Source: Candidatus Krumholzibacteriota bacterium (GTDB taxonomy: Bacteria > Krumholzibacteriota > Krumholzibacteriia > Krumholzibacteriales > Krumholzibacteriaceae). Taken from it: 64,000 nucleotides of DNA. Shown here in pieces: positions 25,343 to 56,152 of this stretch. The stretch covers positions 4,818 through 68,817 of the forward strand of contig JAUWCL010000009.1 of NCBI GenBank assembly GCA_030609325.1, written 5' to 3'. The notes beneath the pieces were generated by a model. The model did no database searches. It saw nothing but the letters and a program-made list of their open reading frames with translations, and had not been told where the DNA came from. The translations under genes and the position numbers were made by a program. Position 1 is the stretch's first letter. Every line of letters begins with the position of its first letter.

Positions 25343-26731
25343 TCAGCAGGAGATCTTTTTCCTGATATTGTCTACGCGTTCGGAAAAGGCCATATCGTCA
25401 GCCATGAGTCCCTCGATCTTCCTGACTGAGTGAAGAACGGTGCTGTGATCCCGTCCACCGAACCATTTTCCGATCATCACGAGAGAAAGGTCGGTCATCT
25501 CGCGGCAGAGGAACATGGCGATCTGTCTCGCCCTGACCACCCGGCTTATCCTCGTCTTGGCCTTGAGGCTGTCGGCGGGAATGTCGTACTCCCGGGCGGC
25601 TGACTCCATGATTTTCCGGGGTGTGATCCTGGTCTTTTCGGGCGACATGACGATATCCCGGAGCGCCTCTCTCGCGATGCCGACCGTGATCTCCTGACAG
25701 GTAAGGCTGGCGAAGGCTAGGATCTTGATAAGCGAGCCCTCGAGCTCCCTGATGTTGCTGGTGACGTTCTCGGCGATGAACTCTATCACGCTGTCCGGTA
25801 TCTGGATATGCTCGTCATCGATCTTGTTCCTCAGGATGGCGATGCGCGTCTCGATATCGGGAGGCTGCAGATCGGTGATCAGGCCCCACGCGAAGCGGGT
25901 GCGAAGGCGCTCCTCGAGAGTGTGTATATCCTTTGGAGGCCTGTCGCTGGTGCAGACGATCTGCTTGTCGGCGTCGTGCAGGGCGTTGAAGGTATGGAAG
26001 AACTCTTCCTGCATAGCCTCCTTGCCCGCAAGGAACTGGATGTCGTCGATAAGAAGAATGTCAACGTTTCTGTACTTCTTCTTGAATTCCAGGGTCTTGC
26101 TCTTCTGGATAGCGTGGATGAGTTCATTGACGAAGCTTTCCGTCGATACGTACACGATGACCATGTTGGCAAAATCCTTGCGGATCTGATGCCCGATTGC
26201 CTGAATAAGGTGTGTCTTTCCGAGGCCGGACCTTCCGTAGATAAAGAGGGGGTTGTAGGCATGGGCGGGTCTTTCGGCGACGGCTAGCGCACCGGCGTGG
26301 GCGAGCCTGTTGCAGTTGCCTACTATGAATTCATCGAACGTATATCGCTCATTCAGATGGATCTTGTTTGGAAGGACCACGGTCTCGCGGATGATCATCG
26401 ACCTGTCCGGAGATTTATCCGGGGGGCCGACACGCGGAGGTCCCGGAGGCGATGTAAGCTCTACCCTCGTGTTCTTGTCCAGCATATCTCTGGCCACCTT
26501 CTCGATCTTGTCGATGTGGTGCTCATAGAGCCAGTCAACAAAGAAGGGGTTGGGGCCCTCGATTCGAAGAACGCCACCCCCATAACTTACCAGGCGCATA
26601 GGAGAGAACCAGGTCTGATAACACTGATCGTTGACCAGCTCCTTCAGACGCTCGAGCAGGCTCTCACGGAGCTCGAGTATCGATTCAAATCCGCCTGAGC
26701 GGTCGCTTTCCAACACCCTTCCCCCCTGCAT
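25343..26731 (-). CDS. dnaA: chromosomal replication initiator DnaA
   Basis: AAA+ Walker A GRSGLGKTHL, Walker B LLIDDIQF, C-terminal DNA-binding helix-turn-helix. Start chosen at MQGGRV (26731) so that the perfect DnaA box at 26807 lies in the promoter; the track start 26803 is also possible. Confidence 0.9.
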   Translation of the reverse strand: MQGGRVLESDRSGGFESILELRESLLERLKELVNDQCYQTWFSPMRLVSYGGGVLRIEGPNPFFVDWLYEHHIDKIEKVARDMLDKNTRVELTSPPGPPRVGPPDKSPDRSMIIRETVVLPNKIHLNERYTFDEFIVGNCNRLAHAGALAVAERPAHAYNPLFIYGRSGLGKTHLIQAIGHQIRKDFANMVIVYVSTESFVNELIHAIQKSKTLEFKKKYRNVDILLIDDIQFLAGKEAMQEEFFHTFNALHDADKQIVCTSDRPPKDIHTLEERLRTRFAWGLITDLQPPDIETRIAILRNKIDDEHIQIPDSVIEFIAENVTSNIRELEGSLIKILAFASLTCQEITVGIAREALRDIVMSPEKTRITPRKIMESAAREYDIPADSLKAKTRISRVVRARQIAMFLCREMTDLSLVMIGKWFGGRDHSTVLHSVRKIEGLMADDMAFSERVDNIRKKISC

Positions 26732-26806
26732 CTCTTTTTGTGTACCGGCGATACCGGTACACCGGAAATAATGGCTATTCCCTTTTTCCCCCGAATTTCC
26801 CACAAT

Positions 26807-26815
26807 TGTGGATAA
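26807..26815. promoter_or_regulatory. DnaA box (TGTGGATAA, perfect consensus) embedded in palindrome CCACAATTGTGG
   Basis: Exact match to TTATCCACA consensus on the dnaA-coding strand; second near-consensus box TTTTCCACA at 26875-26883. Confidence 0.6.
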
Positions 26816-27172
26816 CTCGTTATTTTTATGTGTAACAATCGATTCGGCGGGCTACTTCGTTTGTCTAAAGAGCGTTTTCCACAATTCCAGGCAATTCGTT
26901 AGGAAGGTGTAGGACCAAGGATGTCGGCACATGGAAAATTGGAATACTCCCCTCATCCCGCAGGCGGAAAGTTAGCACAAGGCCGGAAGACATGGCAAGG
27001 CAAATTTTCCTGGAAGAGGAAAAATTTTGTAACCAAATGATAATTAAAAACATACGAAGAGGTCGGAAATCGAAGGTCTCAAAAAGGCATCGATCCGGCC
27101 GGCAAGGCCGGGCTTGGCCGAAAGCGGAACTGATGAAAGCTTAACGAATTAGGCGGACGAGGGATAAAATGC

Positions 27173-27201
27173 TTGACATCAAACCCACCCTTTTTTATTG
27201 T
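27173..27201 (+). promoter_or_regulatory. putative rpmH promoter (-35 TTGACA, 17 bp spacer, -10 TATTGT)
   Basis: Consensus -35 and 4/6 -10 about 65 nt upstream of rpmH ATG. Confidence 0.35.
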
Positions 27202-27266
27202 AAATTGTTTATATAATGTAAATGGCTTAGCCTGCAGATATTTAGAGTAAGATTGGGGACACCGTT

Positions 27267-27401
27267 ATGAAGCGCACATATCAGCCGCATAACAAGAGCA
27301 GAAAACGTACGCATGGATTTCGGAAGAGGATGAGTTCGAAGAACGGCCGCATGGTGCTAAGGAGAAGGAGGGCAAGAGGAAGAAAGCGCCTGGCAGTTTA
27401 G
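27267..27401 (+). CDS. rpmH: 50S ribosomal protein L34
   Basis: [44 protein letters not shown], canonical L34; below the ORF-track length cutoff so absent from the track. Confidence 0.9.
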
Positions 27402-31974: not shown

Positions 31975-32010
31975 TTATAATACTTTTCCACAGCTTTTGA
32001 AGGTTGAGCG

Positions 32011-33849
32011 ATGAAGAATGACGTGATAGTCGTAGGCGGAGGGCACGCGGGGTGCGAGGCGGCACTGGCCTGTGCCAGGATGGGCGTGGAAACGCTCCTC
32101 GCCACGATCAGGAGGGGCGATATCGCGCGCATGCCCTGCAATCCGGCGATAGGAGGGCTGGCAAAGGGACAGCTCGTGCGGGAGATAGACGCGCTGGGTG
32201 GGGAGATGGGCCTCTGCATAGATCACGCAGGGATACAGTTCAGGATGCTCAACAGATCGAAAGGACCAGCAGTATGGTCGCCGAGAGCGCAGGCCGACAA
32301 GGTCGCCTATCACGAGAGGATGATGTCCGCTATAGAGGCGGAGGAGAATATCGAGCTCCTCGAAACGGAGATAATCGGCCTGGTCATGACCGGAGGGGTG
32401 GTGACCGCAGTGATGACCGCGGACCGTGGGGAGCTGCAGGCGAAAAAGGTAATACTGGCTCTCGGAACCTTCCCGAACGGTCTTATGCATATAGGGGAGA
32501 AACAGATACCGGGAGGAAGGGAGGGAGAGCCTCCCTCGCGCGGGCTCTCGGATTGGCTGTCCGGAGCGGGACTCGAGAGGGAGAGGCTGAAGACGGGCAC
32601 GCCCCCCAGGCTGGTGAAAGTATCGATCGATTTTTCGAGATGCGAGGTCCAGCCGGGCGACGAGGAGCCGTCTCCCTTCTCGTTCAGGACCGGGCGGCTC
32701 GTGGTCGAGCAGGTCCCCTGCCACATAACATGGACGGGGGAGAAGACCCATGCGATCATCAACGCAAACATCTATCGCGCTCCGCTCTTCTCGGGGCAGA
32801 TCCGGGGGGCGGGGCCGAGATACTGCCCATCGATAGAGGACAAGGTAGTAAGATTTTCCGAAAAGCCGAGACACCAGATATTCCTCGAGCCGGAGGGAAG
32901 GGATTCGGAAGAGATTTACGTGAACGGCCTCTCGACGAGCCTTCCCGCAGAGGTGCAGCTGGAGATGGTGAGGTCTGTACCGGGCCTCGAGGGTGCGGAG
33001 ATCGCCAGGTACGGGTACGCAATAGAATACGACTTCTTCCCGCCGCACCAGATACATTCGACACTCGAGTCGAGAAAGATCGCCGGCCTCTACTTCGCCG
33101 GACAGGTCAACGGGACGTCGGGATACGAGGAGGCGGCGGCACAGGGCCTGGTCGCCGGGATCAACGCCGCCCTCGCACTGCACGGGCGTGGTACCTTCGT
33201 TCCGGGGCGGAGCGAGGCATATATCGGTGTACTGATCGACGACCTGGTCACGAAGGAGATCAGGGAACCATACAGGATGTTCACTTCGAGGGCGGAATAC
33301 AGGCTCTCGCTCAGGCAGGACAACGCCGACGAAAGGCTTTTGAGATACGCAGTGAGATTCGGGCTTCTGCCGCGCGGGCAATGGGAACGGATGACAGAGG
33401 CGAGAAAATCGGTTCAGCGTGCCAGAAGAAGGCTGGAGGCCGAGAGTGTGACTGCGGGGGATGCCGGGACGATGCGTGCCGCACGGCTGCTGCAGAGGCC
33501 CGGTGTGAGCCTGGACGACGTCGAGTCGCTTCTGGCGGAGGGACCGCTGGCCCTCGGAAAGAGGGAGAGAGAGTCCCTCGAGATCGAACAGAAGTACAGG
33601 GGATATATACGCAGGCAGGGCAGGAGCGCCGAAAAGCTCAAGAGGATGGAGCGAAGACGCATCCCGGAAGACTTCCCGTATGGAGAAATCAAGGCTCTCA
33701 GCTCGGAGGCGAGGGAGAAGCTCGAGAAGTACCGCCCGGAGACCCTGGGGAAGGCAGCGAGACTCGCCGGAGTAAGGATCGCGGATGTCTCGATTCTGAT
33801 GGTCTTTCTGGAGAAGGCCGGGGCCTGGAGGGATGGCGATGACGGGTAA
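32011..33849 (+). CDS. mnmG: tRNA uridine 5-carboxymethylaminomethyl modification enzyme MnmG (GidA)
   Basis: FAD motif VIVVGGGHAGCEAA and full-length GidA conservation. Confidence 0.95.
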   Translation: MKNDVIVVGGGHAGCEAALACARMGVETLLATIRRGDIARMPCNPAIGGLAKGQLVREIDALGGEMGLCIDHAGIQFRMLNRSKGPAVWSPRAQADKVAYHERMMSAIEAEENIELLETEIIGLVMTGGVVTAVMTADRGELQAKKVILALGTFPNGLMHIGEKQIPGGREGEPPSRGLSDWLSGAGLERERLKTGTPPRLVKVSIDFSRCEVQPGDEEPSPFSFRTGRLVVEQVPCHITWTGEKTHAIINANIYRAPLFSGQIRGAGPRYCPSIEDKVVRFSEKPRHQIFLEPEGRDSEEIYVNGLSTSLPAEVQLEMVRSVPGLEGAEIARYGYAIEYDFFPPHQIHSTLESRKIAGLYFAGQVNGTSGYEEAAAQGLVAGINAALALHGRGTFVPGRSEAYIGVLIDDLVTKEIREPYRMFTSRAEYRLSLRQDNADERLLRYAVRFGLLPRGQWERMTEARKSVQRARRRLEAESVTAGDAGTMRAARLLQRPGVSLDDVESLLAEGPLALGKRERESLEIEQKYRGYIRRQGRSAEKLKRMERRRIPEDFPYGEIKALSSEAREKLEKYRPETLGKAARLAGVRIADVSILMVFLEKAGAWRDGDDG

Positions 33850-34453
33850 GGCCGACGATGTCTGGGGACGGGTGCTGGAGGAGCTCGGAGAGACGAAGCC
33901 CCCAGGGAAGCTCAGGGCATATGTGGACGAGCTGGTGAAGTGGGGCGAACGGATACACCTGACGGGCAGGGAGAGGATGGCCGATGCGATCGCCTCACAG
34001 ATATCTGATTCAATGATCATGCTCGGGCTGGCCGGGGAAGGAGCGGAGATTGCCGACATAGGAGCGGGCGCCGGATTTCCCGGGGTCGTATGGAAGCTCG
34101 CGAGACCGCACTGGGATGTGGTCCTCTTCGAGAGGAAGGAGCGCCTCGCGTCGTTCCTCTTGAGAACGACGACCCTTCTCGGTCTGGAAGGAGTATCGGT
34201 GAGGGCCGAGGACGCCGCAATTTATCCGGAGGCGGGCAGATTCGACGTCGTAACGTCAAAAGCGGCGGGTCGATTCGACGAAATGCTTCCGATCGCCGGC
34301 AGGATGCTCAGGAAGGGCGGGATATATGTGACCGCCAAGGGCGAGGGCTGGGAGGCTGAGTTCGAAGGGGTGTCAGAGGGCTTTTCGCCAGGGGGCAGGG
34401 CTCCGCTGAAAGGAAAAAGGGGAGAGGCGATCGCACTCGTTTTCAATCGATGA
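33833..34453 (+). CDS. rsmG: 16S rRNA (guanine527-N7)-methyltransferase RsmG (GidB)
   Basis: SAM motif IADIGAGAGFPG; overlaps mnmG end. Confidence 0.85.
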   Translation: MAMTGKADDVWGRVLEELGETKPPGKLRAYVDELVKWGERIHLTGRERMADAIASQISDSMIMLGLAGEGAEIADIGAGAGFPGVVWKLARPHWDVVLFERKERLASFLLRTTTLLGLEGVSVRAEDAAIYPEAGRFDVVTSKAAGRFDEMLPIAGRMLRKGGIYVTAKGEGWEAEFEGVSEGFSPGGRAPLKGKRGEAIALVFNR

Positions 34454-34460
34454 GCGGCGG

Positions 34461-34476
34461 CGTTTCACGTGAAACA
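34461..34476. other. parS centromere-like site (CGTTTCACGTGAAACA)
   Basis: 15/16 match to parS consensus TGTTTCACGTGAAACA; degenerate second copy CGTTTCACATGAAACG at 34486-34501. Confidence 0.6.
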
Positions 34477-34597
34477 CCGGGCGGCCGTTTCACATGAAAC
34501 GGAAGATTCCTCGAAAATACCCGATTTTTTCATTGATTTCGATCTTCCCGATTCATATAATCCCGCAAGTCCCACGAGGTTGCTCCGGGAGGTATCT

Positions 34598-35806
34598 ATG
34601 CGAGCCACGGGCGTTTATATTATGGCGTTAGCGCTCTTTTCCACAATTCTTGCGGCCGTTTCGGGTTGCGATGATTCCATCCAATTCTTGAACAACCCGC
34701 CGGGCGGGCTGGTAATCATAAAAAACAAGTGTTATCTCGGTCCTGACGATCTGGTAACTCTCACCGGCAGTGCGACAGACGCCGATGGCGATTCGATATA
34801 CTACAGCTGGACCGCTGAAGCGGGCACCCTGTCGCCGTCCGACGGCAAGGGGCAGACCGTCACCTGGCTGGCTCCGGACAGTCACGGGACATACAGGGTC
34901 ACGCTAAAGGCTACCGACGGGCTCGACGTTGCGTCGAAGGGGATCGACCTCGATGTCGGGCGGAATCTCGACATCCTTCACGACGGCGGCATCCTCGATC
35001 AGACCGACTACGCCTACATCGTGCCGAACGCCACGCCTCTTAATATCAGCGAGCTGATCACCGTCCGGATAGAAGCCGGTGTGACTGTCGTGTTCAATGA
35101 AGGGACCGGCGGCTTCAACGTCGGAGGCACGCTCATCATCAACGGCACGCAGCAGGACAGGGTCCTCTTGATGCCGAACGTATGTCCCGGCGAGGAACGC
35201 GTATGGAAGGGGATCAGATTCAGCGGCTACACGGCGACAGGGACTTTGAATTATATCACGATGACGTCCGCGGCCGAGGGATTATCTGTTGAGAACGGCG
35301 CCCATGTAACGGCGGACAACATCATCGTCGATCTGACAACCGGTGACGGGGTGTCCGTGAAATGCAGCGGCAACCTTACCCTTTTGAATTCGAAGATCTG
35401 GGAGAACGGCGCCGGTATATGTATTGCGGGCGGAACGCTGCAGACACGAAACACATCAATTAGTTACAATGGTAATTACGGGTTCTCGATGACCTCCATC
35501 TCGGGGTTTTTCGACGTAGACATAATTGATTGCGTCGTTGCGAACAACGGACGGTACGGATTCGTGCTTGCGGACGTCGCCGGCCCGGTGGTAAACAACT
35601 GCTCGATTTTTCTGAACGGAACGAGCATGACTGATATACGCGCCGTGCTGTTTTTCCGGGATTATACTGGAACAGATCCTGTCGACATGACTGGAAACTA
35701 CTGGGGGGCGACGACAGCTATTGAGATTGAAAGCCAGATAAAGAGGGATGGTGAAGCTTCGGGTACGATCGACTATTCGGGCTGGCTCACAGAGCCGCCG
35801 GTATAA
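34598..35806 (+). CDS. lipoprotein with PKD/Ig-like domain and right-handed parallel beta-helix repeats
   Basis: Start set at [24 protein letters not shown] (lipobox, GGGAGG RBS 5 nt upstream); the track N-terminus overlaps parS sites. Ig-like block ([27 protein letters not shown]) then beta-helix repeats ([31 protein letters not shown]). Confidence 0.6.
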
Positions 35807-35837: not shown

Positions 35838-36665
35838 ATGGGAAAGGTAATAGCGATCGCCAACCAGAAGGGCGGAGTAGGAAAGACGACGACCGCGGTG
35901 AACCTGAGCGCCAGTCTCGGGGTGGCCGAGAAAAAGGTCCTGCTGGTCGATGCGGATCCTCAGGCCAACGCGAGCAGCGGGCTCGGGGTGAGGCTCTCCG
36001 GGGAAGAGGATACGATCTACGAGGTCCTGATCGGCGAGGCGCGGGCGAAGGATGTAATAAGAGACGCCGGCCTTGTGGATCTGCTCCCGTCTCATCCGAA
36101 GCTGAGCGGCGCGGAGATAGAGCTCGTCTCGCAGATAGCGAGGGAGCAGAAGCTCAAGACGGCGCTGTCAGGCGTGACAGGCGACTACGATTTCGTCATC
36201 ATCGACTGCCCGCCCAGCCTGGGCCTGATCACACTCAACACACTGACGGCGGCGGACACGATACTGATACCGATACAGTGCGAGTACTACGCGCTAGAGG
36301 GGCTTAGCCAGCTTCTCGGGACGATCAGGATGGTGCAGAAGCACCTCAATCCCGATCTCAGGATAGAAGGGGTGCTGCTGACGATGTTCGACAAGAGGCT
36401 GCGGCTGGCCGGGCAGGTCGCCGACGAGGCGATCTCGTACTTCGGCGAAAAGGTATACGACAACATAATACCGAGGAACGTCAGGCTCAGCGAGTGCCCG
36501 AGCTTCGGCAAGCCGGTGATCCTCTACGACGTTCAGAGCAAGGGGGCGAAGAGCTACCTGAGGCTCGCCCTCGAGGTGATCGAGAAACAGGTCAGGCATC
36601 ACGAGGAGAAGCGTTCCAGGAGAGGACGCCCGAGTAAGGAAGCGGTAGCAGGGAGAGGCGTCTGA
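35838..36665 (+). CDS. parA: chromosome partitioning ATPase ParA/Soj
   Basis: Deviant Walker A KGGVGKTT; start at [10 protein letters not shown] with GGAGAGG RBS. Confidence 0.9.
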
Positions 36666-36666
36666 T

Positions 36667-37518
36667 ATGAAGAAAGAAGTATTGGGCAGGGGGCTCGAGG
36701 CCCTTCTCTCCCCGGACCTGAAGGAAAGTGTCTCTGAGACCGAGAGGGTCAAGGAGCTCGCCCTCGACAGCATAGACGCCAATCCGCACCAGCCGCGCGA
36801 GCGTTTCGACGACGAACATCTCGGCGAGCTCGCAGAATCGATAAGAAAACACGGAGTACTGCAGCCGGTAGTCGTGCGCAGGGCCGGGGAGAGATATCAG
36901 CTCGTAATGGGCGAGAGAAGGCTGCGCGCGTCGAAGATTGCCGGCAGGACGACGATCCCCGCCATAGTCAGGGAGATAAGCGAAGACGATTCGCTCAAGT
37001 TCGCCCTGCTGGAGAACCTCCAGCGCGAGGACCTGACCCCGGTCGAGGAGGCCCGGGGGTACGCCGCTCTCAGGGACGAGTTCGGACTTTCCGTAAAGGA
37101 TGTTGCCGGGATACTCGGCAAGGACAGGAGCACGGTGGCCAATACCCTCAGGCTGCTGAAGCTGCCGGCACGGGTGATAGAACTGCTCGAGCAGGGCAGA
37201 CTGACGGCGGGGCATGCCAGGGCGATATTGTCCATCGAGGGCGAGGCCCGGCAGATCGAGTGGGCCGAGAGGGTGGTATCGCAGGGCTTTACCGTTCGCG
37301 ATATCGAGGAGGCTGTCCCCGCGAAGAAGGACAGGAAGAAAAGGAGAAGGAAGACCGATCCCCAGCTCGCAGCCATAGAGGAACGAGCCGAGCTGAGATT
37401 CGGGGCGAGGGTGAGGATCGTGCCGCGACGGAAGGGCGGCGTGATATCGATAGATTATTATTCGACAGGGGAGCTGGAAGCGATTCTCGAGAAAATGGGG
37501 GTGGATACGGAGATGTAG
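36667..37518 (+). CDS. parB: chromosome partitioning protein ParB/Spo0J
   Basis: ParB box GERRLRAS, HTH, C-terminal dimerisation region. Confidence 0.9.
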   Translation: MKKEVLGRGLEALLSPDLKESVSETERVKELALDSIDANPHQPRERFDDEHLGELAESIRKHGVLQPVVVRRAGERYQLVMGERRLRASKIAGRTTIPAIVREISEDDSLKFALLENLQREDLTPVEEARGYAALRDEFGLSVKDVAGILGKDRSTVANTLRLLKLPARVIELLEQGRLTAGHARAILSIEGEARQIEWAERVVSQGFTVRDIEEAVPAKKDRKKRRRKTDPQLAAIEERAELRFGARVRIVPRRKGGVISIDYYSTGELEAILEKMGVDTEM

Positions 37519-37552
37519 CGGGCCGGGAAGGCAGCCGCCTTCGTGAACAGGG

Positions 37553-38332
37553 ATGAAGAAGAGCACCTTTACCGTCATCGTAGTTCCGCACGATCCGCAG
37601 AGGACTCGGAACTACAAGATCCCGTACCGGCTCTTCTACGTCCTGGTCACCTTCTTATGCATCGGCCTGGCGGCGGCGATCGTCTTCATGGCCACGTACG
37701 GCAGGCTGCTGCTGAAGGCGAGAGAGTCGGCGGCCCTGGCCGGGCAGGTAGAGGAGCTGACCAGGAGAAATGAACAGATCGGCGAGATAGTACGAAACCT
37801 TTCGGAGCTGCACGCGATGGACCTGAAGGTGAGGCAGATGCTCGGCGTAGACGTGGCGGAAGAAGACAGTCTTGCCATGAGCAGGATGCAGGAGCCCGAC
37901 GGGCTGACTGACAGGGAGGTGCAGGGCGGGAAGGAGCAGATGCTGAGATCGATTCCCAGCTTCTGGCCGGTGCGCGGGTACATCACGAAGTCGTTCAACA
38001 TGGCCGGAGGGACCGGTGACGAGGATTACCATCCCGGTATAGACCTCGGCGTAGAAAGGGGGACGCCCGTAAGGGCGGCGGCTTCCGGATACATCACCGA
38101 GGCGGGCTGGGACGACACGTACGGATACTTTGTCCGGATCGATCACGGCTACGGGATAAAAACACTTTACGGGCACAACGACAGACTGGTAGTAATGAGG
38201 GGCGAAAGAGTCGGCAGGGGGCAGACGATCGCCTATTCCGGCAACACCGGGAGGAGTTCGGCGCCTCACCTGCACTTCGAGGTGATACAGGACAACGTTA
38301 ATGTCGATCCGTTGAAATACCTCTTGAAATAA
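37553..38332 (+). CDS. membrane-anchored M23 (LytM) peptidase
   Basis: N-terminal TM, coiled-coil, M23 motifs HPGIDL..HGYG..LYGHN..HLHFEV. Confidence 0.8.
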   Translation: MKKSTFTVIVVPHDPQRTRNYKIPYRLFYVLVTFLCIGLAAAIVFMATYGRLLLKARESAALAGQVEELTRRNEQIGEIVRNLSELHAMDLKVRQMLGVDVAEEDSLAMSRMQEPDGLTDREVQGGKEQMLRSIPSFWPVRGYITKSFNMAGGTGDEDYHPGIDLGVERGTPVRAAASGYITEAGWDDTYGYFVRIDHGYGIKTLYGHNDRLVVMRGERVGRGQTIAYSGNTGRSSAPHLHFEVIQDNVNVDPLKYLLK

Positions 38333-38341
38333 AGGCGGATT

Positions 38342-38815
38342 GTGATGAAAAAGACAGCGAAGAAGGGCCTTGCAATGTTCGGGAAAGAAGGTGAGAGCAT
38401 GGCTGACGAAGGAAAGATGAATTCGATCATCGGCAAGGGATGCAAGGTAACGGGGACGATAGACGTCCAGGACGGCACCCTCAGGATCGACGGGGATATG
38501 GAAGGCAACGTCAACTGTCCCGGAGGTACAGTGGTGATCGGAAAGGGCGGAACGGTGAAGGCGGACATCAAGGTGTCGAACGCCGTGGTCGGCGGAACGG
38601 TTCACGGGAACATCGACGCGCGCGAAAAGATCGAGCTCCAGGCCGGATCGCGTCTCGAGGGCGACATAAAGACGAAAAGGCTCGTCATAGACGAAGGCGT
38701 CTTTTTCGAGGGTTCGTGCAGGATGAGCCCGGACGGGAAAATCGCGGCGAGCCAGCACGCTCAGCTCGAGGTGAAGAAGGAAGAGAAAGAAAAGACCGGC
38801 GCCTGGAGCAAGTAG
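38342..38815 (+). CDS. bactofilin (CcmA/BacA family cytoskeletal protein)
   Basis: Beta-helical bactofilin repeats (KVTGTIDVQDGTLRIDGDMEGNV, TVVIGKGGTVKADIKVSNAVVGGTVHGNI, LEGDIKTKRLVIDEGVFFEGSCRM). Confidence 0.8.
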   Translation: MMKKTAKKGLAMFGKEGESMADEGKMNSIIGKGCKVTGTIDVQDGTLRIDGDMEGNVNCPGGTVVIGKGGTVKADIKVSNAVVGGTVHGNIDAREKIELQAGSRLEGDIKTKRLVIDEGVFFEGSCRMSPDGKIAASQHAQLEVKKEEKEKTGAWSK

Positions 38816-38840: not shown

Positions 38841-38856
38841 CGCTTCACGTGAAACA
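38841..38856. other. parS-like site (CGCTTCACGTGAAACA)
   Basis: 14/16 match to parS consensus, downstream of the parAB-M23-bactofilin block. Confidence 0.45.
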
Positions 38857-38903
38857 GACGGGATGCATCCCGCCCGGCGCGGTGGAAATATATATGAAAA
38901 TAT

Positions 38904-38930
38904 AAAGGGGGCGTTCCGCGCGCCCCCTTT
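38904..38930. terminator. bidirectional intrinsic terminator
   Basis: Perfect 10-bp stem AAAGGGGGCG / CGCCCCCTTT with 7-nt loop, U-rich on the minus strand; between convergent bactofilin and hsp20. Confidence 0.6.
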
Positions 38931-38954
38931 ATCGCTGATGACGGCGGCCAGCGT

Positions 38955-39401
38955 CTACTTCACGTCGATCTTGATCTCTTTCGGCTTCTCGGGCTCGGCC
39001 TTGGGAACGGCCAGTCTGAGAATACCGTCCGCGTACTCTGCCTCGATATCGTCGGTCGTTATGTTCTCGGGGAGCGTGAATGCTCTCTGGAAGGTGCCGC
39101 AGCTCCTCTCGCAGATGTGGTAGTTCGCATTCTTCTCTTCCTTCTCGGACTTTCTCTCGCCCTTGATCGTCAGGACGTTGTCCCGGACCTCGATATCGAT
39201 GTCTTCCCTCTTCATACCGGGGACTTCCGCGGTGATCTCGAACTTGTCCTCCAGCTCCTCGACGTTGACACTCGGGGTCCAGTCGAAATTCTGGAGATCC
39301 ATCTTCCTCCGGTTCGGTCCGAAGAAATCATCGAACATCCGGTCGAAATGATCGTAAAAAACGGGAAGTCCGGTCCTCGGTCTCCATTGTACGAGCCTCA
39401 T
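38955..39401 (-). CDS. small heat-shock protein (Hsp20/alpha-crystallin)
   Basis: ACD core (FDWTPSVNVEE..AEVPGMKREDIDIEV..LTIKGE..GILRLAVPK); AGGAGG RBS. Confidence 0.9.
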   Translation of the reverse strand: MRLVQWRPRTGLPVFYDHFDRMFDDFFGPNRRKMDLQNFDWTPSVNVEELEDKFEITAEVPGMKREDIDIEVRDNVLTIKGERKSEKEEKNANYHICERSCGTFQRAFTLPENITTDDIEAEYADGILRLAVPKAEPEKPKEIKIDVK

Positions 39402-39804: not shown

Positions 39805-41688
39805 ATGAGACGCACCATCCTGGTTGTTCTTCTGCTGGTCGCGCTGCAGGCCCTGTCGGGGTGTTCGCAGGACGGCATCAGGAAGTACACCATAGAACAG
39901 TTCAAGAACACGCTTGCCGTGTCAGGAGGGTCTTTCTCTCACGACGATACGAAGCTGCTGATCACCACTGACGGGACCGGGATAAGGAACGCCTGGTCGC
40001 TCCCCGTCGCCGGCGGCGAGATGAGACAGCTGACATTCTCGGAAGACAACTCAGTGTTCGCGCTTTCGTACTTCCCCGAGGACGACAGGTTCCTCTGCCT
40101 TGCAGACCGCGAGGGCAACGAGCTCTATCACATCTTTCTCTACGACAGGGACGGGACGGTCACCGACCTGACTCCCTATCCCGGCGCGCGCGCGGTCTTC
40201 TACGAATGGACGCACGACATGGACGCGTTCCTCTTCGGCTCGAACAGGAGGGACGCGAAGTTCATGGACGTCTATGTGATGGACATCGAGTCCATGAAGC
40301 CGAAGATGATCTATCTCAACGACGCGGGCTACAATTTCGGATGGATGTCGAACGACATGAGGTACATGTCGTTGTCGAAGACGAACACCAACCACGATTC
40401 GGACATGTTCCTCTACGACCGGAAGACGGGAGAGGTCAGGCACATCACGCCTCACGACGGAGACGTCAACTACAAGCCGATGGATTTCAGCAGCGACTCG
40501 CGCCATCTCTACTACATCACAGACGACGGCGCGGAGTTCACCTACCTGTGCAGGTACGACATCGCGGGCGGCGGGAGCGAGATAGTCGAGAAGGCCGACT
40601 GGGACATCAGCTGCGCATGCTTCTCGTACAACTGCCGGTACAGGGTGACGGCGATCAACAACGACGCGAGGACGGAGATCAGGATATTCGACATGGAGAA
40701 GAACGGGCCGGTAGCCCTTCCCGAGCTTCCCGACGGAGTGATCACGTCGGTGGGCATATCGAAGAGCGAGAAGCTGATGAGGTTCTACGTCAACGGTTCG
40801 CGCTCTCCCAACAACCTCTACATCTACGATTTCGGGACGGGACAGTACAGCAGGCTCACCGATACGCTCAACCCGGAGATTGATCCGGCGCACCTCGTCG
40901 ACGCCGAGGTGGTGAGGTACGAATCGTTCGACGGTCTCGAGATCCCTGCGATATACTACCGTCCGCACGGAATCGGGGCCGGCGAGAAGATAGCGGCGGT
41001 GGTCTGGGTGCACGGAGGGCCGGGCGGGCAGGCGCGCGTCGGCTACAGCTCGTTCGTCCAGTATCTCGTCAACCACGAATACGCCGTACTGGCCGTCAAT
41101 AACAGGGGCAGCACGGGATACGGCAAGAGGTTCTACGGGCTCGACGACATGAGGCACGGCGAGGATGACCTGAGGGACTGCATCGAGGGGAAGAACTGGC
41201 TCGCTGCGACGGGGTACGTCGATGCGGAAAGGATCGCTGTCGCGGGCGGAAGCTACGGCGGGTATATCGCGCTGGCCGCCCTGACATTCGAGCCGGAGGA
41301 GTTCGCGGCGGGCGTAGACATATTCGGGATCTCGAACTGGATCCGCACGCTGGAGAGCATACCGCCCTGGTGGGAGAGTTACAGGAAGGCGCTATACAGG
41401 GAACTCGGCAATCCGAAGACCGACCGCGAGTACCTGAGGAAGATCTCGCCGCTGTTCCACGCGGACAATATCGTCAGGCCGCTGATGGTTCTCCAGGGCG
41501 CGAACGATCCGAGGATCCTGAAGGTCGAGTCGGACGAGATCGTCGAGGCGGCGAGAAAGAACGGCGTGGACGTCGAGTACCTCGTCTTCGAGGACGAAGG
41601 GCACGGATTCATGAAGAAAGAAAACCAGATCGAGGGGTACAGGGCTATCCGGCTCTTCCTCGACAAGCATCTGAAAGGCGGGGATTGA
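39805..41688 (+). CDS. S9-family serine peptidase lipoprotein (beta-propeller plus alpha/beta-hydrolase)
   Basis: Lipobox LSGC; catalytic GGSYGGY, downstream Asp/His (GANDPRI, EGHGF). Confidence 0.85.
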
Positions 41689-41695
41689 GTCAGCC

Positions 41696-42679
41696 ATGAG
41701 CAACATCGACGACCAGCGGCTGCTCGGACGGTTCGGGGAGGCGTATTCGAGCCTTCGCTCCGAGACAGCGAAGGTGATCATCGGGCAGGATCGCGTGCTC
41801 GACGAGCTCCTGTCCGCGCTGTTCGCCGGGGGGCACTGCCTTCTCGTGGGCGTACCCGGGCTGGCGAAGACCCTGATGATATCGACGGTGGCCTCATGCC
41901 TCGGGCTGAAGTTCTCGAGGATACAGTTCACGCCCGACCTGATGCCGAGCGATATCATGGGCACCGAGGTGCTCGAGGAGGACAAGGCCTCGAGCCGCCG
42001 GGTCTTCCGCTTCCTCAAGGGGCCGGTTTTTGCGAATGTCGTGCTGGCCGACGAGATCAACAGGACCCCGCCGAAGACGCAGGCGGCCCTGCTCCAGGCG
42101 ATGCAGGAGAAGAACGTAACCGTCGGCGGAGAGACCCATCCTCTCGAGGCGCCGTTCTTCGTGCTCGCGACCCAGAACCCGATCGAGCTCGAGGGGACGT
42201 ACCCCCTCCCCGAGGCGCAGCTCGACAGGTTCATGTTCAACATCATGGTAGACTATCCCGAGGAGAGCGAGGAGATGAGGATCGTCGATACCACGACCTC
42301 CGTCGAAAGCCCCGCCGTGGAGAAGGTCCTGACCGGCGAGGAGATCGTCGAGATACAGGGGCTGGTCAGAAAGGTCCCTATCTCGGAGAACGTCCTCTCA
42401 TACGCGGTGCGTCTCGCGAGGGCGAGCCGCGACGGCGCCTTCGAGGGAGTCGGCGAGTACCTTTCGTGGGGAGCCGGCCCCAGGGCGGGCCAGTATCTCG
42501 TTCTCGGCGCCAAGGCGAGAGCGGTGATGCGCCACAGGACGACGCCCGACATCGAGGACATTCGGGCCGTGGCATACCCTGTCCTCAGGCACAGGCTGGT
42601 GACGAATTTTCATGCCGAGGCGGACGGCGTCACCACAGACGAACTGGTGAAGAGACTGCTCGATACCGTCGCGCCGTGA
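41696..42679 (+). CDS. MoxR-family AAA+ ATPase
   Basis: Walker A GVPGLAKT, Walker B VLADEINR, sensor motifs. Confidence 0.9.
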
Positions 42680-42701
42680 CCGGGCGCGGGGAAAGACACG
42701 T

Positions 42702-43607
42702 ATGTCCCCGGAAAAACAAACCGCGGGGGATTTTCTGCGCCCCGAGACAGTCAGCCGTCTGGCGAACATGGAGCTTCGCGCGAGACTGATCGTCGAGGGA
42801 TTCATAGCGGGGCTCCACCGGTCGCCCTACCACGGTTTCTCCGTCGAGTTTGCCGAGTACAGGCAGTACAACGCGGGCGAATCGACGAAGAACATCGACT
42901 GGAAGATCTACGCGAAGACCGACCGCTACTACCTCAAGGTCTTCGAGGACGAGACCAACCTGCGGGGCACGCTCCTTCTCGACCGCAGCGCTTCCATGGA
43001 TTTCTCCGGCGGAGGGGTGACGAAGCTCCGTTACGGCGCCCTGCTCTGCGCCGCCCTCTCGTACCTGATGATAAAGCAGCGTGACGCCGCCGGGCTGGCC
43101 CTCTTCGACGACCGCATAAGCGAGATCGTCCCGCACAGGTCGGCGAGGAAGCACCTCTTCCGACTGCTGAGGGAGCTCGAGAACGTCACACCGGGAGGCC
43201 GGACGGGTATCAGCCGGGCGCTGCACGACATGGCCGAGCGGATACACAGGCGCGGGCTTGTAGTTCTTATAAGCGACCTGATCGACGAGCCGGAGGAAGT
43301 GATTAGCGGGATGAAGCATTTCAGGCACAGGGGCCACGAGCTCGTCGTCTTCCACCTGCTCGACCCCATCGAGCTCTCGCTCGACTATGGAGGCGAGGTG
43401 ACCTTCGTCGACAGGGAGACGGGGAAAAAGCTGCGGTCGCAGCCGTGGTTCGTCCGGAAGGAATACCGGCGCAGCGTCGGCGACTGGACCTCGTATCTCG
43501 AGAAGCGGTGCCTGGAGAACGCGATCGACTACAACCTCGTCACGACCTCGACGCCGTTCGACGAGGCGCTGGTAAGATATCTCGGCAAGAGAGGCAGGAT
43601 GCGCTGA
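42702..43607 (+). CDS. DUF58 (vWA-like) protein, MoxR partner
   Basis: Conserved DUF58 core (HGFSVEFAEYRQYNAGESTKNIDWKIYAKTDRYYLKVFEDE). Confidence 0.8.
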   Translation: MSPEKQTAGDFLRPETVSRLANMELRARLIVEGFIAGLHRSPYHGFSVEFAEYRQYNAGESTKNIDWKIYAKTDRYYLKVFEDETNLRGTLLLDRSASMDFSGGGVTKLRYGALLCAALSYLMIKQRDAAGLALFDDRISEIVPHRSARKHLFRLLRELENVTPGGRTGISRALHDMAERIHRRGLVVLISDLIDEPEEVISGMKHFRHRGHELVVFHLLDPIELSLDYGGEVTFVDRETGKKLRSQPWFVRKEYRRSVGDWTSYLEKRCLENAIDYNLVTTSTPFDEALVRYLGKRGRMR

Positions 43608-43612
43608 CCGGC

Positions 43613-45661
43613 ATGAATTTTCTCAACCCCGCATTCCTCTTAGCGCTGGCCGCTTCGGCGGTCCCGCTCCTGATACATCTGCTGAGTCGCCGACGGGCGA
43701 GGGAGGTCCCGTTCAGCTCTCTGCGCTTTCTCGAGAGATCGGACAGAAAGAGCATGAGGAGGATCAATCTGCGGAGGCTCATCCTGCTCGCGCTGCGGAC
43801 CGCCGCGATCGCCCTCGTTGCACTGGCCTTCGCCAGGCCGGTCATCACCGGCAGGACCGCCTCGCTCTTTCCCGGGAAGGAGCCGAAATCGGTCGTGGTG
43901 ATGATCGACCGCAGCTACAGCATGGGGGTGTGGGGGAGCGAAGGGACCGCCTTCGATGCCGCGGCCGCCGCGGCCCTCGACATCGCGGAGGGGCTGGAGG
44001 AGGACGACGAGCTGACGCTCGTCCTGTTCGACGAGGGAGCGGAGGAGATATTCACCGCGGAGAGGCCCGGACGCGCTGCTGCGGCAGGAGCCCTCGCCGG
44101 CGCGGAGCCGTCCCTGAGGGGAACGGACCTGAGAGCGGCGGCCGGGCACGGGCTCGGCCTCCTCCGTCGCAGCAGGAGGACGGCGAGGGAGCTCTTCATC
44201 GTATCCGACTTCCAGAGGACAGGGATGGCGGGCTCGAGGGAGATCGAAGCGCCTGCGAGGACGAGGGTCTTCCTCGTGCCGGTAACGCCCGCGTCCGGTC
44301 CGAACGTCGCTGTAGAGAGGGTGATCCTCCCCGGCTCGGCGCTGCACAGGGACGAGGCTGCGGTGATGAGGGTCTTTGTGCGCAACACCTCTCCCGACCG
44401 CCCCGCGGGATTCCCGCTGCGTGTCGACATCGACGGGCGCCGGATCATCGAGAAGGAGATCGAGCTGCCGCCGGGAGGAGCGGCGCAGTGTACATTTGAA
44501 TTCGATCTCGGACGCGCCGGGTGGGTCCGCGGCAGCGTCAGCTGCAGGGAGGACATGCTCCCCGCCGACGACACGAGGCTTTTCGCGGTCCTCGTCAGGG
44601 AAAAGACGCCTGTCCTGCTGATATCCGGAGGGGATGCGTTTTACCTCGGGCAGGCGCTCGCCCCGGAGGGAGCGGACGGAGATATCGATCTCGGCGAGGC
44701 CGGGTGGAGCGGGTACACGACCGCCGATCTCGCCGGGGCCGATGTCGTGGTCGCCGGTCCGGGAGGAAGGCCGCGCCCCGGAGACGCGGCCCTCCTGAAA
44801 CGTTACGCCGAGGGTGGTGGAAGGGTCGTCGTATTCATATCGCCGGGGATGGAGAGGTTCGCCGCGGACCTCAGCTCGTACAGCCTCACGGTGACGGCAC
44901 GCGGGACGGGCGGCGGCTTCGTCGAGCTCGAGCGCCCCGGCGGGGAGAACCCCCTTCTCTCCATATTCAGCGACGGCGATCTCGACGGGATAGCCGGGCT
45001 GAGGTTCGTCGGGACCGCCGGGGTCGGAGGCCTTCCGCCCGGAATGGCGGCGCTCTCATTCTCGGACGGCACGCCGTTCGCATGGGCCGAGCGAGCCGGT
45101 GAAGGGGAGATCGTCTTTGCCGCCGCCTCTCCGGTACCGGAAAGCGGCGACCTGGTCCTCTCGCCCTGGTTTCTCCCGCTCGTGCAGCAGATGGTCCTCG
45201 CGCCCCTCGACGTGTCGCCGGGAAGGGAAGGGGCGCTCATCGGCTCTTCCGTCCCCGTACCGCTGAAGGGGGAAGGGGGCTGCTCGATACTGCTGCCCGG
45301 AGGAGTGGAGTACATAGATCCCCTTCCGGCCGGACCTGGAAGGATCACCGTTCCGGCCGGGGACAGGCAGGGGTACCTCACGACCGCCTGCGGCGGAGAG
45401 GAATGGCAGACGGCCGTCAATCCGGACTGCAGGCTCGAGTCGTCTCTCGATTACATGACCGCAGACGAGGCTGCCGACTCGCTCGGATTCGAGAGCTATG
45501 CCGCCGCGCGGGCGGACGCAGGCATATCGGGGACGGTAAGGGAAGCGAGGGAAGGAAGAGAGATCGCCGACGTGCTGATCGTCGCAGCCGCGCTTCTTCT
45601 CGCGGCAGAGCTCGCCGTGGCGCAGCGCCGCGGAGGAGGAAGAGAAGGTGAGAAAGCCTGA
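43613..45661 (+). CDS. BatA-like protein (N-terminal double-TM aerotolerance domain plus vWA)
   Basis: Start at MNFLNPAFLLALAASAVPLLIHLL (BatA_N); vWA-like segment (VVVMIDRSYSMG); the track start 43445 overlaps the DUF58 gene. Confidence 0.65.
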   Translation: MNFLNPAFLLALAASAVPLLIHLLSRRRAREVPFSSLRFLERSDRKSMRRINLRRLILLALRTAAIALVALAFARPVITGRTASLFPGKEPKSVVVMIDRSYSMGVWGSEGTAFDAAAAAALDIAEGLEEDDELTLVLFDEGAEEIFTAERPGRAAAAGALAGAEPSLRGTDLRAAAGHGLGLLRRSRRTARELFIVSDFQRTGMAGSREIEAPARTRVFLVPVTPASGPNVAVERVILPGSALHRDEAAVMRVFVRNTSPDRPAGFPLRVDIDGRRIIEKEIELPPGGAAQCTFEFDLGRAGWVRGSVSCREDMLPADDTRLFAVLVREKTPVLLISGGDAFYLGQALAPEGADGDIDLGEAGWSGYTTADLAGADVVVAGPGGRPRPGDAALLKRYAEGGGRVVVFISPGMERFAADLSSYSLTVTARGTGGGFVELERPGGENPLLSIFSDGDLDGIAGLRFVGTAGVGGLPPGMAALSFSDGTPFAWAERAGEGEIVFAAASPVPESGDLVLSPWFLPLVQQMVLAPLDVSPGREGALIGSSVPVPLKGEGGCSILLPGGVEYIDPLPAGPGRITVPAGDRQGYLTTACGGEEWQTAVNPDCRLESSLDYMTADEAADSLGFESYAAARADAGISGTVREAREGREIADVLIVAAALLLAAELAVAQRRGGGREGEKA

Positions 45662-54489: not shown

Positions 54490-55271
54490 GCCCCCCGGAA
54501 CATAGGATCATAGCGGGCATCTACCATCTCTCGAAGGACCTCGGCAGGCATTTCTCGCTCACCGACATAAATCTGCAGGTGACAAACGGCGAATTCGTCT
54601 TCCTCGTCGGCCCGAGCGGCGCGGGAAAGAGCACGCTGCTGAGGATGATGTACATGGACGACAGGCCCGACTCGGGTCAGATCGTCGTCGGCTCCTTCGT
54701 TTCGACGCGCGTGACGCGCAGGACGATCCCCGGGCTCCGCAGGAAGATCGGCATCGTCTTCCAGGATTTCCGGCTGATAGAGGACAGGACCGTCTTCGAG
54801 AACATCGCCCTGGCGATGAAGGTCACCGGCACGCCGATGAGCAAGATAAAGCAGAGAGCTACCAAGATACTTACCCATGTCGGACTCTATCACAAGCGGC
54901 ACGACTTTCCGAAGGCCCTCTCGGGCGGGGAGCAGCAGAGGGTCGCGATCGCGAGGGCGGTCGCCAACAGGCCGGCGATCCTCCTCGCCGACGAGCCGAC
55001 GGGAAACCTCGACGCCGTATCGACGAGGAACGTTCTCGAGCTTCTGTTCAAGATCAACGCCGGCGGCACGGCGGTGCTGGTCGCGACGCACGACATAGAG
55101 ATGGTGCAGAGCTTCGGCCAGAGGATCATCTATCTCGAGAACGGGCGGATCGCCCGCGATCACGAGAAGATCTTCGTCGGCGACGTCCGCGACAGGATGG
55201 ATGAGTCGAGGGTCTCCCGCAGGGCCGAGCAGCTGTCCGAGTACGATATAAGGGACGAGGAGAACGAATGA
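54486..55271 (+). CDS. ftsE: cell-division ABC transporter ATP-binding protein FtsE
   Basis: Walker A GPSGAGKST, ABC signature LSGGEQQRV, Walker B LLADEPTGNLD; ATGA overlap with pdxA. Confidence 0.9.
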   Translation: MSPPEHRIIAGIYHLSKDLGRHFSLTDINLQVTNGEFVFLVGPSGAGKSTLLRMMYMDDRPDSGQIVVGSFVSTRVTRRTIPGLRRKIGIVFQDFRLIEDRTVFENIALAMKVTGTPMSKIKQRATKILTHVGLYHKRHDFPKALSGGEQQRVAIARAVANRPAILLADEPTGNLDAVSTRNVLELLFKINAGGTAVLVATHDIEMVQSFGQRIIYLENGRIARDHEKIFVGDVRDRMDESRVSRRAEQLSEYDIRDEENE

Positions 55272-56137
55272 ATCTCCGCACGGCGAAATACATGATCGAC
55301 GAGATGATGATCAACCTCGGCAGGAGGAAAGGTGCGAACGCCATAGCGGTGATCATCATGGGCCTTTCCCTGCTGATCCTCGTCGTCTTCCTGATGGTGA
55401 CGCTGAACCTGGCCAATCTGATAGACAAGACGGGCGAAGAGATGAGGCTCTTCGTCTACCTCGAGGACGGCATGGAACAGGATGTCACGCGGGAGATGCA
55501 GCTGAAGCTTCTGGGACTGCGCGGCATAGAGGAGGTCTCGTTCATATCGAAGGGCGAGGCGCTGACCGAGTTCAAGGAGAGACTCGGCGAGGAGAGCGAC
55601 CTTCTCGACGAGCTCGTGGAGAACCCGCTCCCCGACGCCTTCAGGGTAAAAACGAAGCGGGGATACATAACGAGCGAATTCCTCGCGTCGATCGCTTTTG
55701 AGACGGAGAAGTGGGAGGGGGTCGAGGAGGTCCGGTACGGCAAGAAATGGTTCGAGAGGGGCGAGCGTCTGGCGAAGGGCATCTACATTATCGATCTGGC
55801 CCTCGGCCTGATCATCTTTCTCTCGGTGATATTCGTCATATACAATACGGTGCGGCTGACCGTGCTCCACAGGCGTACGACGATCGACGTGATGAAGCTC
55901 GTCGGCGCGACCAACGCGTTCATCCGTATCCCGTTCATCCTGGAAGGCGCTCTTCAGGGGATCGCGGCGTCACTTCTCGCCATCGCGCTCCTGACGGCGA
56001 TCTACGCCTTCTCTTCGAAATATCTTCCCGGGCTCGTTTTCATGAGGTACGACGCGCTCGCAGGCTTCGTCGTATTCTGCGCGATACTCGGCGCTGTCGG
56101 AAGCTTCTCCGCGATGCGCCGCTTTCTCAAGCTCTGA
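55268..56137 (+). CDS. ftsX: cell-division permease-like protein FtsX
   Basis: FtsX topology (N-terminal TM, periplasmic loop, 3 C-terminal TMs); overlaps ftsE by 4 nt. Confidence 0.85.
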   Translation: MNLRTAKYMIDEMMINLGRRKGANAIAVIIMGLSLLILVVFLMVTLNLANLIDKTGEEMRLFVYLEDGMEQDVTREMQLKLLGLRGIEEVSFISKGEALTEFKERLGEESDLLDELVENPLPDAFRVKTKRGYITSEFLASIAFETEKWEGVEEVRYGKKWFERGERLAKGIYIIDLALGLIIFLSVIFVIYNTVRLTVLHRRTTIDVMKLVGATNAFIRIPFILEGALQGIAASLLAIALLTAIYAFSSKYLPGLVFMRYDALAGFVVFCAILGAVGSFSAMRRFLKL

Positions 56138-56152
56138 CAGGCGGACTCCGTC

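Follow-up and report, generated by a model that had tools for sequence, protein, structure and literature searches.

A 64,000-nucleotide stretch of DNA from a Candidatus Krumholzibacteriota bacterium (GenBank assembly GCA_030609325.1, contig JAUWCL010000009.1, positions 4,818 to 68,817; hereafter the window) carries a string of four genes in which the chromosomal partition genes parA and parB are followed by a gene for a membrane-anchored M23 peptidase and a gene for a bactofilin. Comparison with related loci shows that the M23-bactofilin pair is an invariant unit, and that its attachment to parAB is real and old and has been given up several times, the pair and a conserved motif in the cytoplasmic tail of the peptidase being kept. 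We consider it probable that the locus is a bactofilin-M23 morphogenetic module of a known kind, co-expressed with a canonical ParABS system from a parS-proximal, origin-proximal promoter. An earlier note on this DNA (hereafter the original prediction) had named the four genes in this order within 35838-38815, and both their positions, on the plus strand, and their identities are borne out by matches to Pfam and, for ParB, to the NCBIfam model TIGR00180.

35838..36665, plus strand: parA, Soj-type chromosomal partition ATPase, 275 residues (Pfam AAA_31 1e-66, CbiA)
36667..37518, plus strand: parB, CTP-dependent parS-binding partition protein, 283 residues (ParB_N 7e-34, HTH_ParB 1e-32, ParB_C)
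37553..38332, plus strand: M23 metallo-endopeptidase, predicted bitopic, 259 residues (PF01551 3e-32)
38342..38815, plus strand: bactofilin, 157 residues from GTG 38342 (PF04519 2e-28, residues 28-126; β-helix domain about 38423-38719)

Conservation of the four-gene order

The four genes are co-directional, with spacers of 1 nt between parA and parB, 34 nt between parB and the M23 gene and 9 nt between the M23 gene and the bactofilin gene. No terminator-like site was found between them, the only strong hairpin following the bactofilin gene, and the string that the original prediction had described looks like an operon. To place this arrangement among its relatives, one genome per GTDB species was scanned with the peptidase alignment, and the best 80 of 591 confirmed relatives were analyzed, a sample that is biased to the nearest relatives of the query. 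Neighboring genes were called by tblastn with the window proteins, and upstream parAB was counted only in the 71 loci with at least 1.8 kb of upstream sequence. In 70 of these 71 loci, parA-parB lies directly upstream of the M23 gene (the exception is locus L032), so that the arrangement is far beyond chance. A bactofilin gene lies downstream of the M23 gene in all of the best 80 loci except L063; tblastn missed it in L062, L071 and L078, where it is present by inspection of the open reading frames (ORFs).

According to the record titles, the related loci belong to Krumholzibacteriota, Latescibacterota, Gemmatimonadota, Raymondbacteria, Eisenbacteria, FCPU426, Calditrichota and unlabelled metagenome-assembled genomes (MAGs). 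Among labelled records, the proteins encoded in the window have their nearest relatives in Candidatus Krumholzibacteriota MAGs. The complete 4.1-Mb Krumholzibacteriota genome L001 has an identical order from yidC through hsp20, and the peptidases of Gemmatimonadota (Gemmatimonadales, Longimicrobiales) are 34-38% identical to that of the window over the full length. ParA is 52-93% identical to its orthologues across all related loci. Between parB and the M23 gene the gap has a median of 9 nt, and between the M23 and bactofilin genes a median of 13 nt; the stop codon of parB overlaps the M23 start (ATGA or TGATG) in 18 of 76 loci. Pairwise identities of ParB, peptidase and bactofilin are correlated (Spearman 0.57-0.69), as expected if the genes are inherited together. 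The original prediction had left two doubts about the linkage, that it might be peculiar to one genome and that the genes might be transcribed independently. The first is removed by an order that is kept across several phyla, and the second appears unlikely from the short spacers and from the overlaps at the parB-M23 junction.

We then walked outward from two peripheral peptidases and inspected 11 further contexts. The M23 gene is adjoined by a bactofilin gene in every one of the 11. Seven keep the order parA-parB-M23-bactofilin (Fibrobacterota L082, the unlabelled L083-L086, a Krumholzibacteriota-like contig and the marine TMED217 L089), with flanks that vary widely: htrA, a V-type ATPase, TPR proteins, greA-proC and secDF. 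The remaining four, from KSB1 (L087) and from Bacteroidota-labelled or unlabelled MAGs (L088, L090 and L091), have the pair without parAB. In L088, L090 and L091 the gene before the pair encodes a glycosyltransferase or is unrelated, and directly after the pair comes the F-type ATP synthase operon; the atp operon (atpI/atpB onward) also follows the pair in L089 and in the Calditrichota locus L060 (9829-10764). The uncoupled lineages retain both the tail motif of the peptidase and its catalytic residues. The pair can therefore do without the parAB link, and because the tail motif is kept where a bactofilin gene is adjacent and parAB is not, the bactofilin rather than ParA or ParB is indicated as the partner of the tail.

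Several individual loci deserve mention. L032 (JALGYY010000010.1, 8001-9294) is the only one of the best 80 in which the M23-bactofilin pair is not behind parAB; its upstream ORFs, judged by eye from their translations, resemble ispD/ispF and an amidohydrolase, and its bactofilin starts with MFGKDG. In the two Calditrichota loci, a gene for a SpoU/TrmH-family RNA methylase lies between parB and the M23 gene (L060, 7078-7890; L071, 7041-7874; Pfam SpoU_methylase 1e-37). L059 (PBUX01000064.1), titled 'Methanobacteriota archaeon', is organized like the loci of Gemmatimonadales and similar to them in sequence, and L006 (DATKWS010000156.1), titled 'Patescibacteria group bacterium', resembles those of Krumholzibacteriota in the same two respects; both are probably mis-binned or mislabelled MAG contigs.

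Architecture of the peptidase and the bactofilin

The M23 peptidase comprises four parts, all encoded on the plus strand:

37553-37633 (residues 1-27): positively charged cytoplasmic tail with a predicted β-hairpin
37634-37702 (residues 28-50): predicted transmembrane helix, matching a 23-residue hydrophobic stretch at residues 27-49
to about residue 96: predicted periplasmic coiled coil (AlphaFold2 model)
38027-38311 (residues 159-253): M23 domain (Pfam)

In the AlphaFold2 model, which has a mean predicted local distance difference test (pLDDT) score of 75.8, strands at residues 5-10 and 19-24 are followed by a helix at 25-96, a low-confidence linker and the M23 β-domain, and the prediction is of a bitopic protein whose N-terminus lies inside the cell. 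The residues at the Zn-ligand and catalytic positions (H160 and D164 of the HxxxD motif, the central H208, and H239 and H241 of the HxH motif) are invariant in a 12-sequence alignment; in an alignment of 65 sequences, H160 is nearly invariant and the other four are invariant. Judged by these residues, the active site is intact. The cytoplasmic tail is conserved as strongly as the catalytic core, with F6, V11, D14, T18 and Y25 invariant across the 65 homologues, and its pattern ΦSΦΦΦVP…TRxΦ is recognizable across phyla, including Gemmatimonadota. By sequence, the nearest solved structure is Csd1 of Helicobacter pylori (5j1l_A, 4e-23). A fold alignment to the Csd1 chain 5j1l_C has 39% identity, and the fold matches overall are to generic LytM domains. 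A family name from NCBIfam was also considered, and none was adopted; all 13 matches cover the M23 domain only and fall far below the cutoffs.

Bactofilin genes were previously found to adjoin genes for LmdC-type M23 peptidases in 226 species from many phyla (Pöhl et al. 2024, eLife, PMC10945521). LmdC is a bitopic DD-endopeptidase composed of a cytoplasmic β-hairpin, a transmembrane helix, a coiled coil and an M23 domain; the conserved hairpin of its tail recruits LmdC to polymers of the bactofilin BacA and is required for binding (PMC10945521). The window's peptidase likewise has a short cytoplasmic region, one transmembrane helix, a coiled coil, a C-terminal M23 domain and an adjoining bactofilin gene. 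As far as sequence and model can tell, it has the LmdC/Csd1 build, with every testable architectural feature of the class present. The M23-bactofilin half of the original prediction thus agrees with the published LmdC-BacA and Csd1-CcmA pairing (PMC10945521).

The bactofilin has the central PF04519 β-helix domain and the short flanking tails of its family, and its matches among solved structures are Caulobacter crescentus BacA (2n3d, 6e-7) and a Thermus bactofilin (6ria, 4e-5). None of the NCBIfam models matches it. Its C-terminal tail is variable among orthologues, and no conserved client-binding motif was seen there.

ParABS, flanking elements and the replication origin

The partition genes have the features of a chromosomal ParABS system, in that a ParA ATPase and a three-domain ParB are encoded together, with parS near both the operon and the origin of replication, oriC. 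ParB scores 188 bits against TIGR00180, whose cutoff is 58, and its translation contains the GERRxRA CTP-binding motif (here GERRLRA) and the N-terminal LGRGLxALL motif. It is the sole ParB-family protein of the locus and is canonical; no gene for a PadC-like adaptor was found there. The elements on either side of the four genes are as follows:

34461..34476, no strand: parS site CGTTTCACGTGAAACA, 1 mismatch to consensus, upstream of the operon between rsmG and the lipoprotein gene
34486..34501, no strand: second, weaker parS-like site, 3 mismatches
34533..34561, plus strand: sigma-70-like promoter match TTGATT-17-TATAAT, 10/12
34595..35806, plus strand: lipoprotein gene with PKD and right-handed β-helix domains (Pfam Beta_helix 4e-12, PKD 2e-7; signal peptide with a VSGC lipobox)
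38841..38856, no strand: parS-like palindrome CGCTTCACGTGAAACA, 2 mismatches, 25 nt past the bactofilin stop
38902..38932, no strand: G+C-rich hairpin with a 13-bp stem, between the bactofilin gene and the convergent hsp20 (38955-39401, minus strand)

Scored against a consensus of the type TGTTNCACGTGAAACA, the window has 3 parS matches, where 0.05 are expected. Of 70 related loci, 47 have a parS site in the 1.5 kb upstream of parA, and in none of the 70 was a site found inside or downstream of the four-gene cassette, the scan covering 600 nt past the bactofilin gene. We had considered that parS sites might bracket the operon. This idea was dropped, as the site at 38841 is without a counterpart in the 70 loci and, in L002, the closest relative, is degenerate; it is probably a local oddity and not a conserved functional element. 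The sequence at 34533..34561, just downstream of parS, is a candidate operon promoter; it is a consensus match only, and sigma-70 may not be the promoter type of the phylum. The lipoprotein gene has its real start at about 34595 and ends 31 nt before parA. It occupies the same position in L001-L027 and the P0183 context, whereas Gemmatimonadota lack it, and in this phylum it is a candidate for the first gene of the transcription unit, behind the parS cluster. The hairpin at 38902-38932 is likely a bidirectional terminator that marks the end of the operon. An Rfam scan of the whole window gave no match, and no known riboswitch or small RNA was found at the junctions.

The par locus lies about 9-12 kb from oriC, as located by the GC-skew minimum and dnaA. 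The probable oriC is at 25343-27401, between dnaA (minus strand) and rpmH (27267-27401, plus strand), and contains DnaA boxes at 26807 and 26875; the cumulative GC skew of the window has its minimum at about 25-27 kb, where the G+C content dips to 51%. To the left of the origin, on the minus strand, are dnaA, dnaN, recF and gyrB, and to the right, on the plus strand, are rpmH, rnpA, yidC, jag, mnmE, mnmG and rsmG (33833-34453). After rsmG come the intergenic region with the two parS-like sites and the promoter match, the lipoprotein gene and parA-parB-M23-bactofilin. Antisense to both mnmG and rsmG, the minus strand has a 694-codon ORF (31975-34059), which is not a gene but a shadow ORF such as G+C-rich DNA often contains. 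Farther downstream, a Bat/MoxR-type cluster (41696-45661) follows an S9 peptidase gene (39805-41688) and encodes in series a MoxR AAA+ ATPase (AAA_3 8e-63), a DUF58/VWA protein and a large membrane protein.

Meaning of the parAB linkage and comparison with known systems

Based on these results, we favor a model in which the four genes belong to one oriC-proximal transcription unit. ParB would load at the upstream parS sites, and ParA would move the ParB-parS complex. By analogy with BacA and LmdC, the bactofilin would polymerize on the inner face of the cytoplasmic membrane by means of its lysine-rich, MFGK-containing N-terminus, and the polymer may capture the conserved cytoplasmic tail of the peptidase by its predicted β-hairpin. 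Such capture would confine the periplasmic domain, presumably a DD-endopeptidase, to a defined zone of the wall, where local cleavage of cross-links would permit peptidoglycan insertion or a change of shape. The shared and probably ParB-influenced promoter would tie the dosage and timing of the module to replication and segregation. The attachment to parAB is almost certainly transcriptional, and direct contact of the pair with ParA or ParB is presumably absent. The link is old and widely retained in phyla that mostly belong to the FCB (Fibrobacterota-Chlorobiota-Bacteroidota) group; its most economical meaning is co-expression, and it is not evidence for a ParA/ParB scaffold.

Several observations weigh against this model. 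The β-hairpin of the peptidase tail is predicted with only moderate confidence (pLDDT about 61). A tail hidden Markov model built from related loci scored -0.8 bits against the peptide 1-38 of Hyphomonas neptunium LmdC, a score that was reached or exceeded by 650 of 2000 shuffles. Homology between the two tails was accordingly rejected, there being no detectable sequence similarity, and they agree in predicted structure and position only. On the bactofilin side, the start is ambiguous between GTG 38342, ATG 38345 and ATG 38375, the last giving an MFGKEG N-terminus; the spacer to the M23 gene is 12 nt from ATG 38345 and 42 nt from ATG 38375. Many orthologues start exactly at the conserved MFGKEG motif, and in the closest relatives of the window the Met is missing at this position, so that an upstream start with a Lys-rich extension is required. 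The membrane-targeting consensus of bactofilins is MFSKKKK, in which F2 and K4/K7 are critical (PMC12448750); compared with it, MFGKEGES provides M-F-x-K, with one of the two lysines important in BacA targeting, followed by acidic residues. Furthermore, the adjacency of parB, M23 and bactofilin genes in multiple phyla, with shuffled flanks and overlaps suggestive of translational coupling, hints at something stronger than an accidental neighbor and, by gene-neighborhood logic, at a functional tie beyond mere co-expression.

Such a tie is the substance of a different view, close to that of the original prediction, in which the bactofilin polymer also scaffolds ParB-parS, ParA or both, together with the M23 tail, and so couples the position of the origin to a zone of wall remodelling at a pole, bud or division site. 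The deep conservation of the four genes, their differing flanks, the parB/M23 stop-start overlaps and the correlated divergences of ParB, M23 and bactofilin would all suit it, and bactofilins can organize ParABS (PMC5703909), an idea also raised for bd3904 of Bdellovibrio (PMC7186360). However, the only parAB-adjacent bactofilin examined experimentally, BacM of Myxococcus xanthus, is without effect on ParA/ParB localization (PMC5703909), the locus has no PadC-like adaptor, and the C-terminal tail of the bactofilin is variable and lacks a conserved client motif. Moreover, KSB1 and three Bacteroidota-labelled or unlabelled contexts have kept both the pair and the tail motif with no parAB beside them, and in one branch the atp operon is just as stable a neighbor of the pair, which indicates that synteny with a housekeeping operon can be long-lived without implying physical interaction; taken by itself, synteny is weak evidence. 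We judge this scaffold rather unlikely, and the combined segregation and peptidoglycan module, or polar landmark, of the original prediction is unsupported. Its most specific form, in which one bactofilin polymer binds ParB-parS (or ParA) and, across the membrane, the M23 endopeptidase via its β-hairpin tail, as an ancestral and mainly FCB-group landmark that anchors the origin, is doubtful and appears to us unlikely.

Two further explanations were weighed. A pair that merely sits beside parAB in a slowly rearranging, origin-proximal block, without selected co-regulation, would resemble mnmG, rsmG and parAB, which are also syntenic here and in relatives without a known functional tie; the atp linkage elsewhere shows that the pair tolerates different housekeeping neighbors, and the parAB linkage has been lost several times. 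However, what surrounds the cassette varies from lineage to lineage and the four genes nevertheless remain together, which counts against neutral synteny, and junctions of a few nucleotides, or overlapping ones, imply a shared transcript; we regard this explanation as highly improbable. A role in division or cell separation, in which the M23 protein acts at the septum like EnvC, NlpD or DipM, the bactofilin positions it and the parB linkage coordinates segregation with division, is suggested by the LytM domains of DipM and EnvC among the nearest NCBIfam and fold matches and by the coiled coil that, as in EnvC, precedes the M23 domain. Yet the NCBIfam matches are the sub-cutoff, domain-only ones described above, the peptidase keeps the catalytic residues that activators of the EnvC/NlpD type have lost, and it is predicted to be an N-in bitopic protein with a conserved cytoplasmic tail, which EnvC lacks. 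In addition, the window encodes a separate M23 protein (56153-57331) directly after ftsX (55268-56137), with a long coiled coil and two Zn ligands replaced relative to the parB-linked enzyme (H to N and H to T); by its sequence, the region 55268-57331 is a classical FtsEX-EnvC amidase-activator pair that covers the division-activator role in the window. With an intact active site in one protein and a degenerate FtsX-linked M23 protein elsewhere, identity of the parB-linked peptidase with EnvC or NlpD was ruled out, and we hold the septal role to be very unlikely.

Bactofilin-M23 pairs and ParABS are each well studied, and the coordination of segregation with local wall remodelling is the wider question on which the cassette bears. 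To our knowledge, almost nothing is known of the cell biology of Gemmatimonadota, Krumholzibacteriota, Latescibacterota and Fibrobacterota. For these phyla the conserved cassette offers a concrete and cheap hypothesis, and cultured carriers include Gemmatimonas and probably Fibrobacter succinogenes S85, whose pair is in a published list (PMC10945521). Were the origin-anchoring landmark real, the parking site of the origin would be the site of local wall opening for growth, budding or pole maturation, and the cassette would stand in for the PopZ, DivIVA or HubP-type organizers of other phyla; a demonstration of direct contact between bactofilin and ParAB would sharply raise its importance. If co-expression is all that joins the genes, the cassette clarifies why bactofilin genes recur beside parAB (Myxococcus bacM, Bdellovibrio bd3904) and is a warning against reading such adjacency as a physical link.

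Among known systems, that of M. xanthus had served the original prediction as the precedent for a bactofilin scaffold of ParAB, and it was misapplied. The bactofilins that organize ParABS there are BacNOP, with the adaptor PadC, and they are encoded away from parAB, whereas bacM is found immediately downstream of parAB and has its role in cell shape, its deletion leaving the localization of ParA and ParB unchanged (Lin et al. 2017, PMC5703909). The parAB-bacM locus is thus like ours in placing a bactofilin gene next to parAB, and the shape role of BacM fits a wall-related role for parAB-linked bactofilins; it is unlike ours in that no M23 gene has been described there. In contrast to the BacNOP-PadC system, the window locus is without a PadC-like adaptor gene. 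In Bdellovibrio bacteriovorus, rsmG is followed by one extra gene and then by parA, parB and a bactofilin gene (PMC10547168), and reverse-transcription PCR showed that parA3, parB and the bactofilin gene bd3904 are co-transcribed; the authors of that study raised the idea of a bactofilin scaffold for ParABS (PMC7186360). A bactofilin gene directly after chromosomal parAB, downstream of rsmG and one uncharacterized gene, is common to both loci, but no M23 gene has been reported between parB and the bactofilin gene in B. bacteriovorus, which belongs to another phylum.

The helical-shape complex Csd1-Csd2-CcmA of H. pylori resembles the present pair in that an M23 peptidase is functionally tied to a bactofilin, and Csd1 is the closest solved relative of our peptidase; unlike in H. 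pylori, neither a Csd2-like inactive paralogue nor a Csd5 or Csd7 partner is encoded at the window locus. We know of no linkage of the Helicobacter csd/ccmA genes to parAB. The closest comparison is with LmdC-BacA of H. neptunium and Rhodospirillum rubrum. The window peptidase is much shorter than LmdC (259 residues), its tail has no significant sequence similarity to the LmdC peptide, and its gene and that of the bactofilin lie behind parA-parB in one apparent operon near oriC. ParB is not mentioned in the LmdC study, whose gene table includes F. succinogenes S85, of the FCB group, and no Gemmatimonas, Myxococcus or Bdellovibrio (PMC10945521). Our own literature search on the four-gene cassette, or on bactofilins in Gemmatimonadota, Krumholzibacteriota or Latescibacteria, returned nothing relevant. 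What the two systems share is adjacent, co-directional M23 and bactofilin genes, the same layout of the peptidase, in the window with a predicted β-hairpin, and intact Zn ligands. The components are new members of known families, and the parAB-M23-bactofilin cassette is, as far as the literature that we found extends, an undescribed variant at the level of the operon.

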